Positions 48,572 to 57,510 of a stretch of DNA of 64,000 nucleotides are shown here, piece after piece (position 1 is the stretch's first letter; each line of letters opens with the position of its first letter). The notes under the pieces were generated by a model, which saw only the letters and a program-made list of their open reading frames with translations, was not told the origin of the DNA and searched no databases. A program made the translations under genes and the position numbers. Source of the DNA: an uncultured Alphaproteobacteria bacterium (GTDB lineage: Bacteria; Pseudomonadota; Alphaproteobacteria; HIMB59; GCA-002718135); assembly GCA_902622475.1 (NCBI GenBank), contig CACNPW010000001.1:2217-66216 (forward strand), in the 5' to 3' direction.

Positions 48572-49443
48572 TGAGTATTAAAAATGTTTCTTTTATTGGC
48601 TTAGGAGTAATGGGTTATCCAATGGCAGGTCATCTTCAAAACAAAGGTTATAATGTAACTGTATATAATAGAACAACTGCTAAAGCAGAAAAATGGGTAG
48701 AAGAATATAAAGGTATCATTGCTAAAACTCCTGGTGAAGCTTCTCAAAATTCTGAAATTGTTTTTATGTGTGTTGGACGCGATGAAGATATTATTGAAGT
48801 AATGGAAGGTGAGGATGGAATTCTTTCAAAAGTAACTGAAGGATCAATAATTGTTGATCACACAACAGCTTCCGCAGAGATAGCAAGAAATTATTATCAA
48901 AAACTTAAAGATAAAAAATTGAGTTTTCTTGATGCCCCTGTATCTGGCGGTCAAGCAGGTGCAGAAAATGGTGTTCTTTCTATTATGATTGGCGGCGATG
49001 AAAAAGATTATAATACTGTTAAACCAGTTCTCACATCTTATGGAAAAGCAGTTGAACTTATAGGTCCATCTGGATCAGGTCAAATAGCTAAAATGATAAA
49101 TCAAATTTGTATTGCGGGATTAGTTCAAAGTTTATCTGAAGCAATGGCTTTTGGAAAAAAATCCAATGTAGACATGGAAAAAGTTCTTAGCGTAATATCC
49201 AAAGGCGCAGCACAATCATGGCAAATGGAAAATAGATATAGAACTATGCTTGATGGAAAGTTTGATTACGGTTTTGCCGTAGATTGGATGCGTAAGGATT
49301 TATCAATTTGTTTTAATGAAGCTAATAAAAACGGTGCCAACCTTCCTATTACAAAAATAGTTGATAAATATTATGAAGAAGTTCAAAACAATGGTGGTAA
49401 TAGATTTGACACGTCATCTTTAATGACGCTAGTTGATAAATAG
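48571..49443 (+). CDS. NAD(P)-dependent beta-hydroxyacid dehydrogenase (3-hydroxyisobutyrate dehydrogenase family)
   Basis: FIGLGVMGYPMAGHL Rossmann motif, DAPVSGG and GSGQIAKMINQ. Confidence 0.88.
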   Translation: MSIKNVSFIGLGVMGYPMAGHLQNKGYNVTVYNRTTAKAEKWVEEYKGIIAKTPGEASQNSEIVFMCVGRDEDIIEVMEGEDGILSKVTEGSIIVDHTTASAEIARNYYQKLKDKKLSFLDAPVSGGQAGAENGVLSIMIGGDEKDYNTVKPVLTSYGKAVELIGPSGSGQIAKMINQICIAGLVQSLSEAMAFGKKSNVDMEKVLSVISKGAAQSWQMENRYRTMLDGKFDYGFAVDWMRKDLSICFNEANKNGANLPITKIVDKYYEEVQNNGGNRFDTSSLMTLVDK

Positions 49444-50360
49444 TGGTAAATAAATATTTATTAGCTTTTATTTTATTAATTGCCTCCTCTTTTTTTTGGT
49501 CTGGAAATTTTTTCGCTGGTAAAATTGCATATAATACAGACTTGTCTCCATTTAAATTAAGTTTTTTTCGATGGACTTTAGCTTTTATTATACTTTTACC
49601 TTTTACGTATAAGGAGATAAAAAAAAATTTAAAATATTATAAAGAAAATTTTTTATTAATTAGTTTGATTGCATTTCTTGGTGTAACAATCTTTAATTCG
49701 TTTACTTACATATCTTTACAAACAACACTTGTAATTAATTCCGCTTTAATGAATTCTGTGACACCAGTTCTAATAATTGGTTTCTCATGGTTAATATTTA
49801 AAACAAAGACAAGTTTACTTCAATTTATTGGAATATTTTTATCAGTTATTGGTGCATTTTGTATAATTTTAAAAGGGAATTTAAATAATCTTTATTCTTT
49901 TCAATTTACAAGTGGTGATATTTGGATGTTTATTGCTGCACTATCATGGTGTGTATATTCAGTACTATTAAGAAAAATTGATAAAAATCTATCCCAACTT
50001 GCAACTTTAGAAGTGCTTATATTCGTTGGTTTAATTTTTCTCATACCTTTATATTTATTAGAATCTTCAAATTCTACTTTTATTCCTGATAATAGCACTG
50101 ATTACTTGATAATTATTTATGTGGCTATATTTGCAAGTATTGTTTCTTTTTTTTCATGGAATATGGGAGTTTCAATTGTAGGTGCTAACAGAGCTGGATT
50201 ATTTTTACACTTAATACCTGTATTTAGTTCAATTTGGGCAATAAGTTTTTTAGGAGAACAATTTGCTTTATTTCATTTAATTGGAACTATATTTATATTA
50301 TTGGGAATAATACTCTCAAACTTAAATTTTAAATATGTCAAAAATAATCAAAACAGATAA
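49443..50360 (+). CDS. DMT-superfamily (EamA-like) transporter (GTG start)
   Basis: About 10 TM helices in two EamA repeats. Confidence 0.85.
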   Translation: MVNKYLLAFILLIASSFFWSGNFFAGKIAYNTDLSPFKLSFFRWTLAFIILLPFTYKEIKKNLKYYKENFLLISLIAFLGVTIFNSFTYISLQTTLVINSALMNSVTPVLIIGFSWLIFKTKTSLLQFIGIFLSVIGAFCIILKGNLNNLYSFQFTSGDIWMFIAALSWCVYSVLLRKIDKNLSQLATLEVLIFVGLIFLIPLYLLESSNSTFIPDNSTDYLIIIYVAIFASIVSFFSWNMGVSIVGANRAGLFLHLIPVFSSIWAISFLGEQFALFHLIGTIFILLGIILSNLNFKYVKNNQNR

Positions 50361-50730: not shown

Positions 50731-51904
50731 TACTTTTAATACACTCCTATTTTCATCAATAGGTCATGCGCTCATGCATATGTTTGCAGCATTTTATTTT
50801 GTAATTGTTCTAACTATAGAAAAAGAATGGAATATTTCCTATGATCAATTAATAAGACTATGGTCTCTTGGAGCCCTACTAATTGGTTTAGGGGCAATTC
50901 CTTTTGGGTGGTTAAGTGATAAATGGTCTCGTTCAGGAACAATGACAATTATGTTTATTGGAATGGGATTGGCTTCAATATTATGTGGTTTAAGCACATC
51001 AGTTTCTTTTTTATTTTTTTCATTATCACTTCTTGGACTTTTCTGTTCAATCTATCATCCTGTTGGTATTCCATGGGTAATTCATGCAGCTAACAAACAA
51101 GGAAGAGCTCTTGGAGTAAATGGTATTTTTGGTGGAGTAGGAATAGGATCCGGCGCATTTGTAGCTGGCACTCTAACGGAATTACTAACTTGGCAACTAG
51201 CTTTTATATTACCTGGTTTGATATCTATTGTTATAGGATTTTATCTTATCTACTTAATTTTAATTAATAAAATATCTTATAAAAATTATTTTATTAAAAA
51301 TGATGATCAAGTTCATTCTCGTAATGAAATGATTTTAATTGCATTAATAATGCTTTTATCAATGTTTGCTCTTGGATTATCTTTTCATAATACACAAACA
51401 GCATTACCTAAAGTTTTTGAAATACGAATTGGCAATATAAACTCAATTCAAATTGGATTTATGATAGCAATTATTTATTTTATTTCTGGTGCTACAACAT
51501 TTGTTGGAGGATTACTTGCTGATCGTTTTAATCTAAAAACTATTTATTTAATTGGTATTTTTCTTCAGTTTCCTTGCTACCTAGGTATAGCTTACATATT
51601 TGGTTACTCTTTAGTAGTGTTATGTATTCTTGCTGCCGTATTTAATGCAAGTATTCTTCCTACAGAAAACCTCTTACTTGGAAGATTTACACCTCAAAAG
51701 TATCATGGTGTAGTATATGGAATTAAGTTTATTCTTGCATTTGGATCGGGACCAATTTCGGTATTTTTAATTTCAGAAATTTACTCCATAACTTTAGAGT
51801 TTACTTATTTGTTTTTAATTAATGCAATAATGATGGCTATAGTTTCAGTTTTTATTATTTTTTTACCCATTCAAAGTAATCAAAGAATAGCTACTCAGGA
51901 TTAG
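50723..51904 (+). CDS. MFS transporter (TTG start)
   Basis: About 12 TM helices and a LSDKWSR-type loop motif. Confidence 0.85.
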   Translation: MNNTFNTLLFSSIGHALMHMFAAFYFVIVLTIEKEWNISYDQLIRLWSLGALLIGLGAIPFGWLSDKWSRSGTMTIMFIGMGLASILCGLSTSVSFLFFSLSLLGLFCSIYHPVGIPWVIHAANKQGRALGVNGIFGGVGIGSGAFVAGTLTELLTWQLAFILPGLISIVIGFYLIYLILINKISYKNYFIKNDDQVHSRNEMILIALIMLLSMFALGLSFHNTQTALPKVFEIRIGNINSIQIGFMIAIIYFISGATTFVGGLLADRFNLKTIYLIGIFLQFPCYLGIAYIFGYSLVVLCILAAVFNASILPTENLLLGRFTPQKYHGVVYGIKFILAFGSGPISVFLISEIYSITLEFTYLFLINAIMMAIVSVFIIFLPIQSNQRIATQD

Positions 51905-52118
51905 ATTTTATTTCTTCAAGATAATTAATAACATCATTAAATTTTTCATCAGGTATATTTTTATAAGACATGCCAAAATGATTTTTTACTTCTAATGCAA
52001 CATGAGCATAAGGATTTCTCCCTTTTGGATGATTTGGATGATCTGGCAATTTCCCTTTTAAAAAATCTCCTGTTTTTTGGATTTCTTTCCATATTATTTT
52101 TGCATTATTTACATTCAT
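51891..52118 (-). CDS. Hypothetical 75-aa protein with ORF6C-like C-terminal motif
   Basis: Not low-complexity and does not shadow another gene. The C terminus VKNHFGMSYKNIPDEKFNDVINYLEEI recalls the phage ORF6C motif (FGV-SYKDIP...F..A..fl). Confidence 0.5.
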   Translation of the reverse strand: MNVNNAKIIWKEIQKTGDFLKGKLPDHPNHPKGRNPYAHVALEVKNHFGMSYKNIPDEKFNDVINYLEEIKSNPE

Positions 52119-52238: not shown

Positions 52239-53228
52239 ATGCACGTAGATTCTAGTATTTGGTTCAAACCTAAAATCGATCGAAAGAAATTAAAGGAATT
52301 ATCTATAAGAAGTGATTTTCCAGGATTAATTCATTTTGCGATTTATTTTTCTTCACTTATATTCTTCGGATACCTATCTTATATTTTTTGGGGTAGTTGG
52401 TTTTTTATACTGTTCTACTTTATTTATTCAACAATCTATGCTTTTAACGTTGCGAATTGGCATGAGACAGTTCATCGTACTGCTTTTAAAACTAGGTGGA
52501 TAAATGAAATTTTTTATTATCTTAGTAGTTTTCAAGGTATGGCAGAACCTCTAAGCTTAAGATGGTCACATAGTTTTCATCATTCTAATACTCTACAAAC
52601 AGAAGAAGAGTATGATCACGAAATTGAGGTATCGAGACCTACTGATCTTTTTAGATTTTTTTTGAAATTTATTCCTTTAACTGATTTAATTTATATTCAT
52701 CAATCTCCATTTGTTCATATATTTAAACTTTCATTTGGTAAATTAAGTCCAGGAATAAAAATTTCTGTGCCAGTAAGTGATATTAAAAAAATAATTAGAA
52801 ATGCAAGAATTTATTTACTAATTTGGTTTGCTATTATTTTATCTTGTTTTTATTTTGATACTATTTTACCAATTTTGTTTTACTTTTTGCCATCATACGT
52901 AGGTAAACCTATACAATTTGCTGTCAATGTTACACAGCATCTTGCTGCTAAATTTGATTCAAAGGATCACCGATTAAGCACACATACAGTAATATTAAAT
53001 CCTATATTTAGCTTTTTATACTGGCATATGGAATATCATTTAGAGCATCATATGTTTCCAATGGTTCCTTCATATAATTTAAAAAAATTGAGAAAGGAAA
53101 TTGAAAGTCAGCTACCTAGACCTTTCAATGGATTGTTTGATTTTTACAAGACAATTCTACCATATTTGATTAAACTTGCTTTTAACTCAAATGATTACTA
53201 TCGAGTAAAATTGCCAGAAAATACCTAA
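52239..53228 (+). CDS. Membrane fatty-acid-desaturase-family protein
   Basis: Three His boxes: HETVH, HSFHH and HLEHH. Has TM helices. I preferred ATG 52239 over TTG 52203. Confidence 0.85.
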   Translation: MHVDSSIWFKPKIDRKKLKELSIRSDFPGLIHFAIYFSSLIFFGYLSYIFWGSWFFILFYFIYSTIYAFNVANWHETVHRTAFKTRWINEIFYYLSSFQGMAEPLSLRWSHSFHHSNTLQTEEEYDHEIEVSRPTDLFRFFLKFIPLTDLIYIHQSPFVHIFKLSFGKLSPGIKISVPVSDIKKIIRNARIYLLIWFAIILSCFYFDTILPILFYFLPSYVGKPIQFAVNVTQHLAAKFDSKDHRLSTHTVILNPIFSFLYWHMEYHLEHHMFPMVPSYNLKKLRKEIESQLPRPFNGLFDFYKTILPYLIKLAFNSNDYYRVKLPENT

Positions 53229-53357: not shown

Positions 53358-54768
53358 ATGTTAAAAAAAATAATCGTACTTATTAGTACAACTACTATTT
53401 TTTCTTCATTTATATTTTCAAGCTCTCATGCATTTGAATGTGATATTCCAATTTTAGAAAGTTCATCAGATGCTGTTAAAGCTTATTATATACCTGAAAA
53501 AAAAATTTGAAGGAATGAGTATAAATGTACCAAAGGAAAATGTTGAGAACGATATTGAAAAGGGTTGCAGAGAAAAATTTGAAGAATTATCTGGAGCTAA
53601 AGTAAATGTAATAGTTTTTCCAAAACAAAAAGATATGCTTGATGCAATCAATCTAGCTTTAGCAACTAATAGCGGAGAATTTGATGTTATGACATCAGGT
53701 GCAGGTGGAGCAAAGGAGTATGGCTTAGGTGGACATCTAAACCCTTTACAAACACCACCAGATATAGATGATTTTTATACTGGTGATATTAATCAATATA
53801 GTATTGGTGGAAAACTTATGGGTATACCTAGTATAGCTGATACTAATATATTGTATTGGAGAACTGATTTATTTGAACAAGCAGGTTTGGATCCAAACAA
53901 ACCACCTAAAACATATTCAGAATTAACTGAATATGCAAAACTGTTAACAATAGATAAAAATGGTAAAAATAGCACTGAAGAGGGATTTGATAAAAATAAT
54001 ATTGATATCTATGGTTATGGTTTTAGAGGTGAAGCAAGTTTAGCAAGCCCTTGGCAATGGTATAACTATCTCTTTGCATTTGGTGGAGATTTATTTGATA
54101 GCGAATATAATATTATTATTGATCAGCCAGAGTCCGTAGCTTCACTACAATGGGTTGTAGATAATTACAGAGTGCACAATATTATGCCAGCTGACACACC
54201 TGTTTATGACTATGGCGCATTCCACACTTTGTTTATACAGGGCAAAATGGCTATGGCTGTAAATTGGCCATATATGTATGGTATGTCTCAAGACCCTGAA
54301 CAATCAAATGTTGTAGGCAAGGTAGCTGTAGGAAGAAAACCTATGGAAGTGAGACATGCTGGTAATATGGGCGGATGGTCTTGGAGTGTTTTGAAAATGT
54401 CTCAGAAACAAGAACTAGCTGAGGCTTATGCAAAATGGAATGGTAATCCTGACATGGCAGTTTATAATGCTGTTTTAAGGGGAAATGCTCCTGCTAGAAG
54501 ATCTGCTACTGAAAGAATGATAGAAGAAAATCCAGTTATTGCCGGTGCTATTGCTCAAAACTTACCTGATAATATGGGAGTTAAGTGGATAGATACAGGA
54601 CCTTCATGGATGGCACTAGAAAAAGAAACTTGGAAGTTCATCCAATTTGCTTTGACAGGAGAAAAAACACCTGAACAAGCTTTAAAGGATGCAAAAGTTG
54701 AAATGGAGAAAATTCTCAAAAGAGATAGATTCTATGAGGAAATTGCTCCACAACTTCTAGGGAATTAA
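53358..54768 (+). pseudogene. ABC transporter substrate-binding protein (family 1, sugar-type), reading frame broken at an A9 tract
   Basis: The GGGAGG SD, ATG 53358 and signal peptide MLKKIIVLISTTTIFSSFIFSSSHA lie in frame 0 and stop at 53508. The mature SBP domain (to 54768) is in frame +1. The frames meet at A9 (53497-53505), and A8 would give ...YYIPEKKFEGMSINV... Confidence 0.8.
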
Positions 54769-54816: not shown

Positions 54817-55704
54817 ATGAAATTTATAAACTCTTCTTCTTTTTTTGGTGGGGCAATAATACTACCAGGTGTAATAATTTTATTGTTATTTTATTTATAT
54901 CCATTAGCTTATTCTCTTTTTATAAGTTTACATGATTTTAGGTTAATAAGACCAGATTTAACTCAATTTGTTGGTTTTAGAAATTATTTTGAAATTTTTT
55001 ATGATGATGAGTTCCTTAACGCTTTCATTAATACTCTTATTTATGTTGGAATATCTTTACCTTTTGAATTAGTAATTGGCCTTTTTTTGGCTTTAGCTTT
55101 GGATAAAATTACAAGAGGAAAAAATATAATTAGAGCTTTTTTAATCGTTCCACAATTTTTGGCTCCTCTTGCCATGGGTTTCATATGGAAATTTATGTAC
55201 AATGATGATTTAGGAATAATAAATTTTTTTCTTCGTTTTGTAGGAATGGAAAGGCCACCATTGTGGATAGCTGATCCTGCAATATCCTTGTACAGCTGTA
55301 TAATTGTTGAGATTTGGGCTTGTGTTCCTATTTTTATGCTTTTGCTTTCTGCAGGGTTAACAACTTTATCAACTGAAATTATTGATGCTGCAAAAATTGA
55401 TGGTGCGAATGCTTATCATCGTCTTCGCTATATAATACTTCCTCATTTAAAACCTATTATTCTTGTGACATTATTAATAAGAGGAATGGATTCATTTAGA
55501 ATATTTGATTTAATTTATGGACTCACGCAAGGTGGCCCAGCCATGAGTAGTGATGTTTTATCATTGTACATGTATAGGTCAGGAATGTTGGATCGACAAT
55601 TTGGTTATTCAGCAAGCGCAGGATGGATTATGGTATTTATGATGTTAATTGCATCTTATATTCTTATTAAACTTATGTACAGAGATGGGATCAACAAACA
55701 ATGA
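54817..55704 (+). CDS. ABC transporter permease (MalF/UgpA-like)
   Basis: Six TMs and an EAA-loop region IIDAAKIDGANAYHRLRYIILP. Confidence 0.9.
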   Translation: MKFINSSSFFGGAIILPGVIILLLFYLYPLAYSLFISLHDFRLIRPDLTQFVGFRNYFEIFYDDEFLNAFINTLIYVGISLPFELVIGLFLALALDKITRGKNIIRAFLIVPQFLAPLAMGFIWKFMYNDDLGIINFFLRFVGMERPPLWIADPAISLYSCIIVEIWACVPIFMLLLSAGLTTLSTEIIDAAKIDGANAYHRLRYIILPHLKPIILVTLLIRGMDSFRIFDLIYGLTQGGPAMSSDVLSLYMYRSGMLDRQFGYSASAGWIMVFMMLIASYILIKLMYRDGINKQ

Positions 55705-56522
55705 ATAAGAGTGAAAAAAGATTAACAACAATAAGTTGGTTCTTTATTAGCTTATCTCTGTTTATATGGTTATTTCCAATTATCTGGTTCGCATTGGCTT
55801 CTTTTAAAAATCCAAAAAATTTATATGATATTTTTTCATTTGAATTTAGTTTGTATAACTACAGAGAGGTCTTTAATACATATCCAATTGCAACCTATAT
55901 GAAAAATAGCTTAATTTTAGCAATTTCAGCAACGTTATTTGCTGTTACAATAGGTACTTTAGTTGCTTACGGCTTAAGTCATACTCGTTTTCGATTTAAG
56001 ACACAAACAACTGTTTTTATCTTTTTATTAAGACTTATTCCAGGAATGGCTGTAATGGTTCCTCTATTTATAATTTTTTCATCATTAGGATTAACAAATA
56101 CCTATCATGGATTAATTTTTGCTCATACAACTATGTCAATTCCTTTGGTTGTTATAATAATGCTTGGATATTTATCAGATTTTCCAAAAGAACTTTTAGA
56201 TGCAGCTTATATTGATGGATGTAATAAATTTAATGTAATTTATTTAATAGTTTTCCCACTTATTAAACCTGGGTTAGCAGTTGTAGCAATTTTTACATTT
56301 ATTGGTAGCTGGAATAATTTTGATATTGCATTGATTCTTGGTTACATGCCTGAATATAAGACTCTACCACTTGGTCTTGCTGGTATGGGAAATAGATATG
56401 GAATATTATGGCATCATGTTGCAGCTGCAGGTGCAGTATACATAATTCCAACAGTAATTATGGCCATAACACTTTCCAAATATGTAATTAGTGGATTAAC
56501 TGTTGGAGCAATTAAAGGATAA
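55701..56522 (+). CDS. ABC transporter permease (MalG/UgpE-like)
   Basis: Six TMs and an EAA-loop LLDAAYIDGCNKFNVIYLIVFP. Confidence 0.9.
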   Translation: MNKSEKRLTTISWFFISLSLFIWLFPIIWFALASFKNPKNLYDIFSFEFSLYNYREVFNTYPIATYMKNSLILAISATLFAVTIGTLVAYGLSHTRFRFKTQTTVFIFLLRLIPGMAVMVPLFIIFSSLGLTNTYHGLIFAHTTMSIPLVVIIMLGYLSDFPKELLDAAYIDGCNKFNVIYLIVFPLIKPGLAVVAIFTFIGSWNNFDIALILGYMPEYKTLPLGLAGMGNRYGILWHHVAAAGAVYIIPTVIMAITLSKYVISGLTVGAIKG

Positions 56523-56549
56523 AAAAAAATAACATCTATATTATTTTTT

Positions 56550-57510
56550 ATGAATTCTAATTCGAAAATAAAATACTTTAATTTAAATGAATTTGAGCTT
56601 TCAGATGGAGATAAAAAAAAGGAATTAATAATAAATTTAGATAATGTCTGTAAAGATACTGGTTTTTTATTAATCACAGGCCATAATATAGATAGAAAAA
56701 TAATTGATAATATTTGGTCAGTGGTAGATCTTTTTTTTGAACAACCGATTGAATTTAAGCTAAAAATTAGTCCTCCATATAAGGGGTATCCATACGGCTA
56801 TCTTGCTAAAGGTTTAGAGGCTTTAGCTTATTCTAAGGGAGAAAAAACACCTCCTGATTTAAAGGAAAGTTTTAATGCTGGACCATTATTAATTCCTGAT
56901 TCTATATCTGATAAAGAAGCACTTGAATTTTGCTATGCTCCTTCATTATGGCCAGAAATATTAAATTTTCAAAAATATTGGAGTGAATACTATAATTCGA
57001 TGCAAAAATTATCTACACGCGTAATGAGATCTTTCGCATTGGCATTGAATCTTGATGAAACTTATTTTGACCAATACATAGACAAAAATATTTCAGCTTT
57101 AAGAGCACTTAATTATCCTCCAGTTCAAAAAATTTTACCAAAACAACAGATGGCAGGTGCCCATACTGATTATGGTAGTCTTACAATATTACTACCAAAG
57201 GATAATACCAGTGGACTTCAAATTAAAAATCTTGCAGGAGAATGGATAGATGTACCTAGTGATCCTAATATTTTTGTCTGCAATATTGGAGACTTGATGG
57301 CCCAATGGACAAATAATAGATGGGTTTCTACTTTACATAGAGTGGTACCTAATAAAAAAAAATAATAATAGAAGGTCACTTGCTTTTTTTCATCAACCTA
57401 ATTGGGATGCAGAGATAAAATGTTTAGAAAGTTGTAGAGGAAAGAAAGAAAATTATAAACCAGTTCAATCAGGGCCATATTTAATGTCAAAATTTAAGTC
57501 TACTTTATAA
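56550..57510 (+). pseudogene. 2-oxoglutarate/Fe(II)-dependent oxygenase (isopenicillin-N-synthase family), reading frame broken at an A9 tract
   Basis: The HxD motif (AHTDYG) and distal His (LHRV) lie in frame 0, which stops at 57363. The expected C terminus RRSLAFFHQPNWDAEIKCL...YLMSKFKSTL continues in frame +1 to 57510. The junction is at A9 (57354-57362). Confidence 0.8.

Follow-up and report, generated by a model that had tools for sequence, protein, structure and literature searches.

In this window (the whole 64,000-nucleotide stretch of DNA that was analysed), the gene for a 2-oxoglutarate/Fe(II) oxygenase has one A too many in a run that would otherwise have eight, which breaks its reading frame. 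The interruption is most probably technical, a single-base difference in homopolymer length that is private to this assembly and lies in an ordinary conserved gene. The sequence-only reading that drew attention to the site had located it exactly, and all of its coordinates and peptides for the A9 run, the end of frame 0 and the course of the +1 frame proved correct. Its view of the lesion as a notable biological feature did not hold up, as the A9 state is private when set against 21 of 21 relatives, the gene shows no decay, and two indels in 64 kb are about what the documented error rate of the single-cell workflow predicts.

The upstream part of the oxygenase gene lies in frame 0 on the forward strand (56550–57365) and encodes 271 amino acids, comprising the DIOX_N domain and most of the 2OG-FeII_Oxy domain with its HxD...H triad. 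Its 3′ end reads ...STLHRVVPNKKK, followed by a TAA at 57363–57365 that falls immediately after the distal iron-ligand histidine (H263). The switch point is the A9 run at 57354–57362 on the same strand, a run length seen at this site in no related contig, and the downstream part of the gene occupies the +1 frame (57364–57510, forward strand) with 48 codons and a stop, including the RxS motif (R274 and S276). That frame is free of stops from 57298 to the TAA at 57508–57510 and translates as NNRRSLAFFHQPNWDAEIKCLESCRGKKENYKPVQSGPYLMSKFKSTL. Deleting a single A, so that A9 becomes A8, gives one product of 319 amino acids that reads ...VVPNKKNNNRRSLAFFH... across the junction; conversely, A9 in place of A8 brings the TAA into frame and thereby cuts off the 2-oxoglutarate-binding RxS strand. 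The G+C content of the window is 27.3%, and at its base composition 48 open codons past the junction would be expected by chance with p ~0.013. It is homology, rather than open-frame length, that is decisive in marking the downstream frame as the predicted C-terminus of the oxygenase, as this part holds, besides the RxS, the final strands of the double-stranded beta-helix core and, at the C-terminus, the conserved SGPYLMSKFKST.

Domain searches place the enzyme where the earlier reading had placed it, in the isopenicillin-N-synthase family of 2OG/Fe(II) oxygenases, with PF14226 (DIOX_N) and, after repair, a full-length PF03171 (2OG-FeII_Oxy). The frame-0 product matches 2OG-FeII_Oxy only over profile positions 6–89 of 101 (63.9 bits), whereas the repaired product matches positions 6–101 of 101 (75.4 bits), so that the profile alignment proposed as a check shows a frame-0 product short of full length and a downstream frame that completes the domain. 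DIOX_N is present in the truncated and repaired products alike (56.8 bits for the repaired protein). In an alignment of 13 sequences (the repaired oxygenase and 12 homologues at 54–96% identity), the iron triad H205, D207 and H263, all encoded in the frame-0 part, is invariant in 13 of 13; of the two residues encoded only in the +1 frame, R274 never varies and S276 is conserved to at least 90%. The RxS motif binds the C5 carboxylate of 2-oxoglutarate and lies about 10 residues past the distal histidine. Solved structures align straight through the junction (9ovh_A, the best PDB match, with E = 3e-41; thymine dioxygenase 5c3p_A with E = 3e-35), and the RxS of the repaired oxygenase aligns with the R and S of both; the suggestion that the +1 frame supplies the missing RxS/2OG strand is thus upheld by Pfam, alignment and structure matches across the junction. 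Since it would be without the co-substrate-binding strand, the frame-0 product alone should be inactive. The enzyme shares its domain pair, HxD...H and RxS with family members such as the ethylene-forming-enzyme-like 9ovh and the thymine-7-hydroxylase 5c3p, but differs from them in having no NCBIfam equivalog and a best PDB E-value of only 3e-41; a search of NCBIfam left the oxygenase, and likewise the neighbouring desaturase and peptidase, without a specific name. Homologues of the repaired oxygenase number in the thousands, and the nearest of them are intact proteins of 319 amino acids.

Identical proteins encoded elsewhere in the window carry the NCBI name Pelagibacteraceae, which places the lineage in SAR11 (Pelagibacteraceae). 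Its nearest genomes are single amplified genomes from GORG-Tropics (AG-457-C19, AG-422-N03, AG-891-E15 and others), and many Tara Oceans metagenome contigs share the gene order with up to 99.4% DNA identity over a 5.3-kb cluster that includes the oxygenase gene. Distinct related contigs were compared at two runs, 21 of them covering the oxygenase run and 20 the run in the binding-protein gene described below. At the oxygenase site every one of the 21 has one base fewer than the window (A8 in 18 and A5TAA in the other three), and at the binding-protein site all 20 have A8 and an intact protein of 469 amino acids. The truncated 271-aa oxygenase and a 432-aa binding-protein fragment were each found in one contig only, the window's own (74,051 bp), and each is a singleton in its protein cluster, of 88 members for the former and 76 for the latter. 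The A9 state is therefore private to one assembly. A search of JGI metagenome contigs for the oxygenase run at whatever length gave one match (L084), which has A8; this search was too shallow to give an allele frequency. Two 169-aa members of the oxygenase cluster (P0124 and P0125) were considered as natural truncated variants and rejected, since they carry the A8 allele on short Tara contigs; they look like C-terminal pieces starting at an internal methionine. As a separate observation on the assemblies, proteins from about 2.5–42 kb of the window occur on two NCBI contigs and those outside this stretch on one, which points to a further assembly of that part, either nearly clonal or a duplicate.

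The nearest allele gives the most direct view of what the gene would be without the extra base. It is also the closest substitute for the resequencing that had been named as a refuting test, being a near-identical allele from a different cell that carries A8. Another single-cell genome (L110) encodes the exact A8-repaired protein (P0317) on its contig CACCQI010000020.1, so that the earlier expectation that A8 would restore a full-length protein was matched letter for letter in a sister genome. Only five positions separate the window from L110 between 56321 and 59046, and within the oxygenase gene these are one synonymous site and the extra A. From 59047 on (compared to 62969) the divergence jumps to ~4%, which probably reflects a recombination breakpoint within topA, towards its 3′ end. 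Recombination mosaics of this kind are typical of SAR11. A substitution was counted as private when the window had it and at least five comparators all lacked it. The five genes from desaturase to oxygenase together have 13 synonymous and 3 non-synonymous private substitutions, and in the oxygenase there are 5 synonymous and 1 non-synonymous, with one of the synonymous changes in the downstream frame. Pseudogene decay, sought through these substitution counts and through further lesions in the genes, was not seen, each broken gene having a single lesion. Because the private changes are mostly synonymous and one of them falls in the downstream frame, purifying selection has acted on both halves of the gene practically up to the present, and a long-standing pseudogene was rejected on the same counts. 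As judged from these comparisons, the living population would carry an ordinary, intact and selectively maintained oxygenase of 319 amino acids.

The oxygenase is the last gene of a forward-strand cluster that begins with a fatty-acid desaturase (52239–53228) and continues with a substrate-binding protein of the SBP_bac_1 family (53358–54768) and two permeases (54817–55704 and 55701–56522), and that is followed on the minus strand by a C1 peptidase and topA. The binding protein and permeases form a sugar-type ABC importer. The binding-protein gene is itself split by an A9 run (53497–53505, forward strand), which parts a signal-peptide piece, running from the ATG at 53358 to a TGA at 53508–53510, from a 432-aa body in the +1 frame (53470–54768). 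This companion run lies 3,857 bp upstream of the oxygenase A9 and shifts the frame in the same +1 sense; the matching change that had been described 3.9 kb upstream was thus seen again here as A8 to A9. Repaired to A8, the binding protein has 469 amino acids and is 100% identical to its counterpart in the single-cell genome AG-422-N03. A third A9 run lies between the permease stop and the oxygenase start (56521–56529, forward strand), outside the lesion. Here A9 is present in the window, L110, L084/L102 and L104, A8 in ~16 distinct contigs, and a version 6 nt shorter in three more distant contigs. Because it is common to L110 and two metagenome contigs, the intergenic A9 is an inherited natural polymorphism, and for the same reason we rejected the notion that three A9 runs within 3.9 kb constitute a cluster of private events; the two coding A9 runs are the only private indels.

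Two further features of this region were noted in passing. An open reading frame of 75 amino acids on the minus strand (51891–52118), in the gap between an MFS transporter gene and the desaturase, recurs at the same position in nearly all related contigs that cover the site; it has no Pfam match and is likely to be a conserved small protein with no assigned function. The EamA/DMT-family transporter gene at 49440–50360 has ~66% protein identity to the copies in sister single-cell genomes, against 93–99% for the flanking genes, and would be an allele that is either hypervariable at this spot or acquired through recombination.

The origin of the data bears directly on how the two coding runs should be read. 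All genome-derived contigs retrieved with the exact window proteins, including every one longer than 10 kb, are unannotated GORG single-cell assemblies, the sole exception being a metagenome-assembled-genome contig of 9.4 kb (L109); the window proteins themselves are known only from NCBI and have no accessions. Because nearly all contigs with its exact proteins come from GORG single-cell assemblies, the window is probably itself the assembly of a single amplified genome. On the reading that we favor, DNA from one cell would have been amplified, sequenced and assembled, and an A8 run (...N-K-K-N...) recorded as A9, the extra base arising through polymerase slippage or a homopolymer miscall; the A9 in the binding-protein gene would have the same origin. 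Benchmarked per 100 kb, the single-cell workflow makes 1.5 misassemblies, 3.0 indels and 5.0 mismatches (PMC9771814), and whole-genome amplification is known to inflate loss-of-function indels specifically in homopolymers (PMC5467262). At 3.0 indels per 100 kb, 1.9 would be expected in 64 kb, with a probability of 0.57 for two or more, and two were observed. We simulated a change of ±1 at all 175 homopolymers in the window (A/T runs of at least 7 and G/C runs of at least 5) and found only two real frame-breaking sites, those in the oxygenase and the binding protein. The other sites flagged by the scan were rejected as lesions, as 16026, 46892 and 54809 are overlaps at gene junctions and 53363 lies in the start region of the binding protein.

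A comparable lesion was found in a sister genome. In AG-422-N03 a T7 run has become T8 (A7 to A8 on the coding strand; L005 position 14677 and L096 position 16410, corresponding to ~61227 in the window), which splits topA into pieces of 72 and 787 amino acids, while the window, L004 and L097 have T7. The topA gene is presumed essential in bacteria, and no viable cell would be expected to have it split in this way; at least some indels of this kind are therefore not genuine genotypes. No other comparable lesion turned up in the ~150 kb of sequence from sister single cells that was aligned to the window, and ~125 kb of metagenome contigs, whose consensus assemblies hide private variants, had none. 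With an indel private to one assembly, at a frequency that fits the error rate, and with the same class of error in a sister topA, we infer that the extra A is technical rather than biological, and on balance we consider it probable that it arose during amplification or assembly and is absent from the cell. Some observations go against this. The window is somewhat richer in such lesions than the sister single-cell sequence, and both indels fall in one five-gene cluster, which the co-inactivation of a module would fit more naturally; by chance, a pair of events in 64 kb would fall this close together (within 3.9 kb) with p ~0.12.

The alternative that deserves the most attention, while still rather unlikely in our estimation, is a real and very recent loss of function private to the cell, in which slipped-strand mispairing took A8 to A9 in both the binding-protein and the oxygenase genes. 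A SAR11 cell without mismatch repair would then have had its importer–oxygenase module knocked out, in that cell or in a small clone, by alleles too young or too deleterious to show in the population consensus, and some full-length protein might still be made through RNA-polymerase slippage or ribosome sliding on the AAA codons. The location of both lesions in a single functional cluster favors this account, as does the absence of mutS and mutL from SAR11 (PMC12374537), and the adjacent intergenic run, with its A8/A9 polymorphism in Illumina metagenome contigs and an A9 shared with L110 by descent, shows that real slippage at such runs occurs in the population. In reduced, AT-rich genomes, moreover, gene erosion classically begins with homopolymer frameshifts (PMC3017870). 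Against these points, the A9 allele occurs just once, whether set against 21 distinct contigs or counted within an 88-member cluster, and there is no excess of non-synonymous change. By our own rough reasoning, private lesions would number well below one per 64 kb even without mismatch repair, whereas the artefact rate predicts ~2; the weights that we give to an artefact and to a real mutation rest partly on such rough rate estimates of our own. The lesion in the presumed-essential topA of a sister single-cell genome likewise shows that at least some of these indels are not viable genotypes. As for residual expression, ribosomes slide on iterated AAA codons (PMC4363877), and poly(A) frameshifts in endosymbionts can be rescued by transcriptional slippage (PMC3017870), so that leaky full-length expression is conceivable if A9 is real; a +1 shift at AAA-TAA would yield ...PNKKKNNRR..., equal in length to the A8 product. 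Transcriptional slippage at A/T runs, however, mostly adds a base (PMC5574713), and a +1 lesion at the DNA level would rarely be corrected by it.

Readings in which the A9 run has a function fare far worse, and we give almost no credence to an obligatory transcriptional slippage site, a +1 ribosomal frameshift at AAA-TAA, or a phase-variable run that turns the transporter and oxygenase on and off. Such proposals can draw on the fact that A9 runs are known sites of RNA polymerase slippage, on the hungry stop codon right after AAA, which makes a plausible context for a +1 shift, and on the presence of two runs of equal length and direction in one cluster. Yet the frameshift is conserved in none of the 21 distinct related contigs, all of which read through in one frame, and three relatives have the non-slippery A5TAA at the oxygenase site, so that a programmed frameshift failed the test of conservation and was rejected. 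By eye, the sequence upstream holds no strong Shine-Dalgarno-like stimulator at prfB-type spacing. Phase variation would call for polymorphism in the length of the coding homopolymers; we found none among 20–21 independent contigs, whose consensus assemblies may hide low-frequency variants, while the intergenic run does vary. Because no relative is frameshifted, three are without the homopolymer, and the coding runs are constant in length, programmed frameshifting, obligatory transcriptional slippage and phase variation are, on these comparisons, effectively excluded. A broader version of the last idea, that A8 runs in SAR11 accessory uptake modules serve as high-rate switches by which cells stochastically silence the module, with some leakiness from slippage, seems to us highly improbable; if it were true, it would amount to a contingency-locus strategy in a free-living oligotroph.

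Among known systems, the closest resemblance is to the homopolymer errors of single amplified genomes and amplified DNA, where, as here, a single-base change in an A/T run is confined to one assembly and gives an apparent loss of function in a conserved gene. The frequency agrees with the workflow benchmark of 3.0 indels per 100 kb, and the change fits the excess of homopolymer loss of function reported for amplified DNA. Compared with random single-cell error, the occurrence of two events in one gene cluster is slightly unusual. The poly(A) frameshifts of the endosymbionts Buchnera and Blochmannia, which are tolerated through transcriptional slippage, also have much in common with this case, being ±1 changes in runs of about nine A within undegraded genes of AT-rich genomes (27% G+C here). 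Some of those frameshifts are conserved across populations or species and have been demonstrated to give a full-length product, whereas the A9 allele in the oxygenase is a singleton whose relatives are in frame, and a +1 lesion in the DNA would need a −1 or +2 change in the transcript, which is the rarer outcome. In phase-variable contingency loci, the length of a coding homopolymer sets the open frame, as it does here; those differ from the present case in that the coding runs show no polymorphism, the organism is a free-living oligotroph and not a pathogen adapted to a host, and the run is interrupted in some relatives.

For the interpretation of SAR11 genomes, the break is mainly a caution that apparent frameshifts at A8–A9 runs in AT-rich single-cell assemblies should not be equated with pseudogenes, recoding or pathway loss before the reads have been checked. 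To take this one as real would wrongly drop the transporter–oxygenase module from the metabolic reconstruction of a SAR11 lineage. Should the indels nevertheless prove to be real, they would add modestly to the picture of homopolymer mutational load in SAR11 cells, which lack mismatch repair; frameshifts of this type are as such already known.
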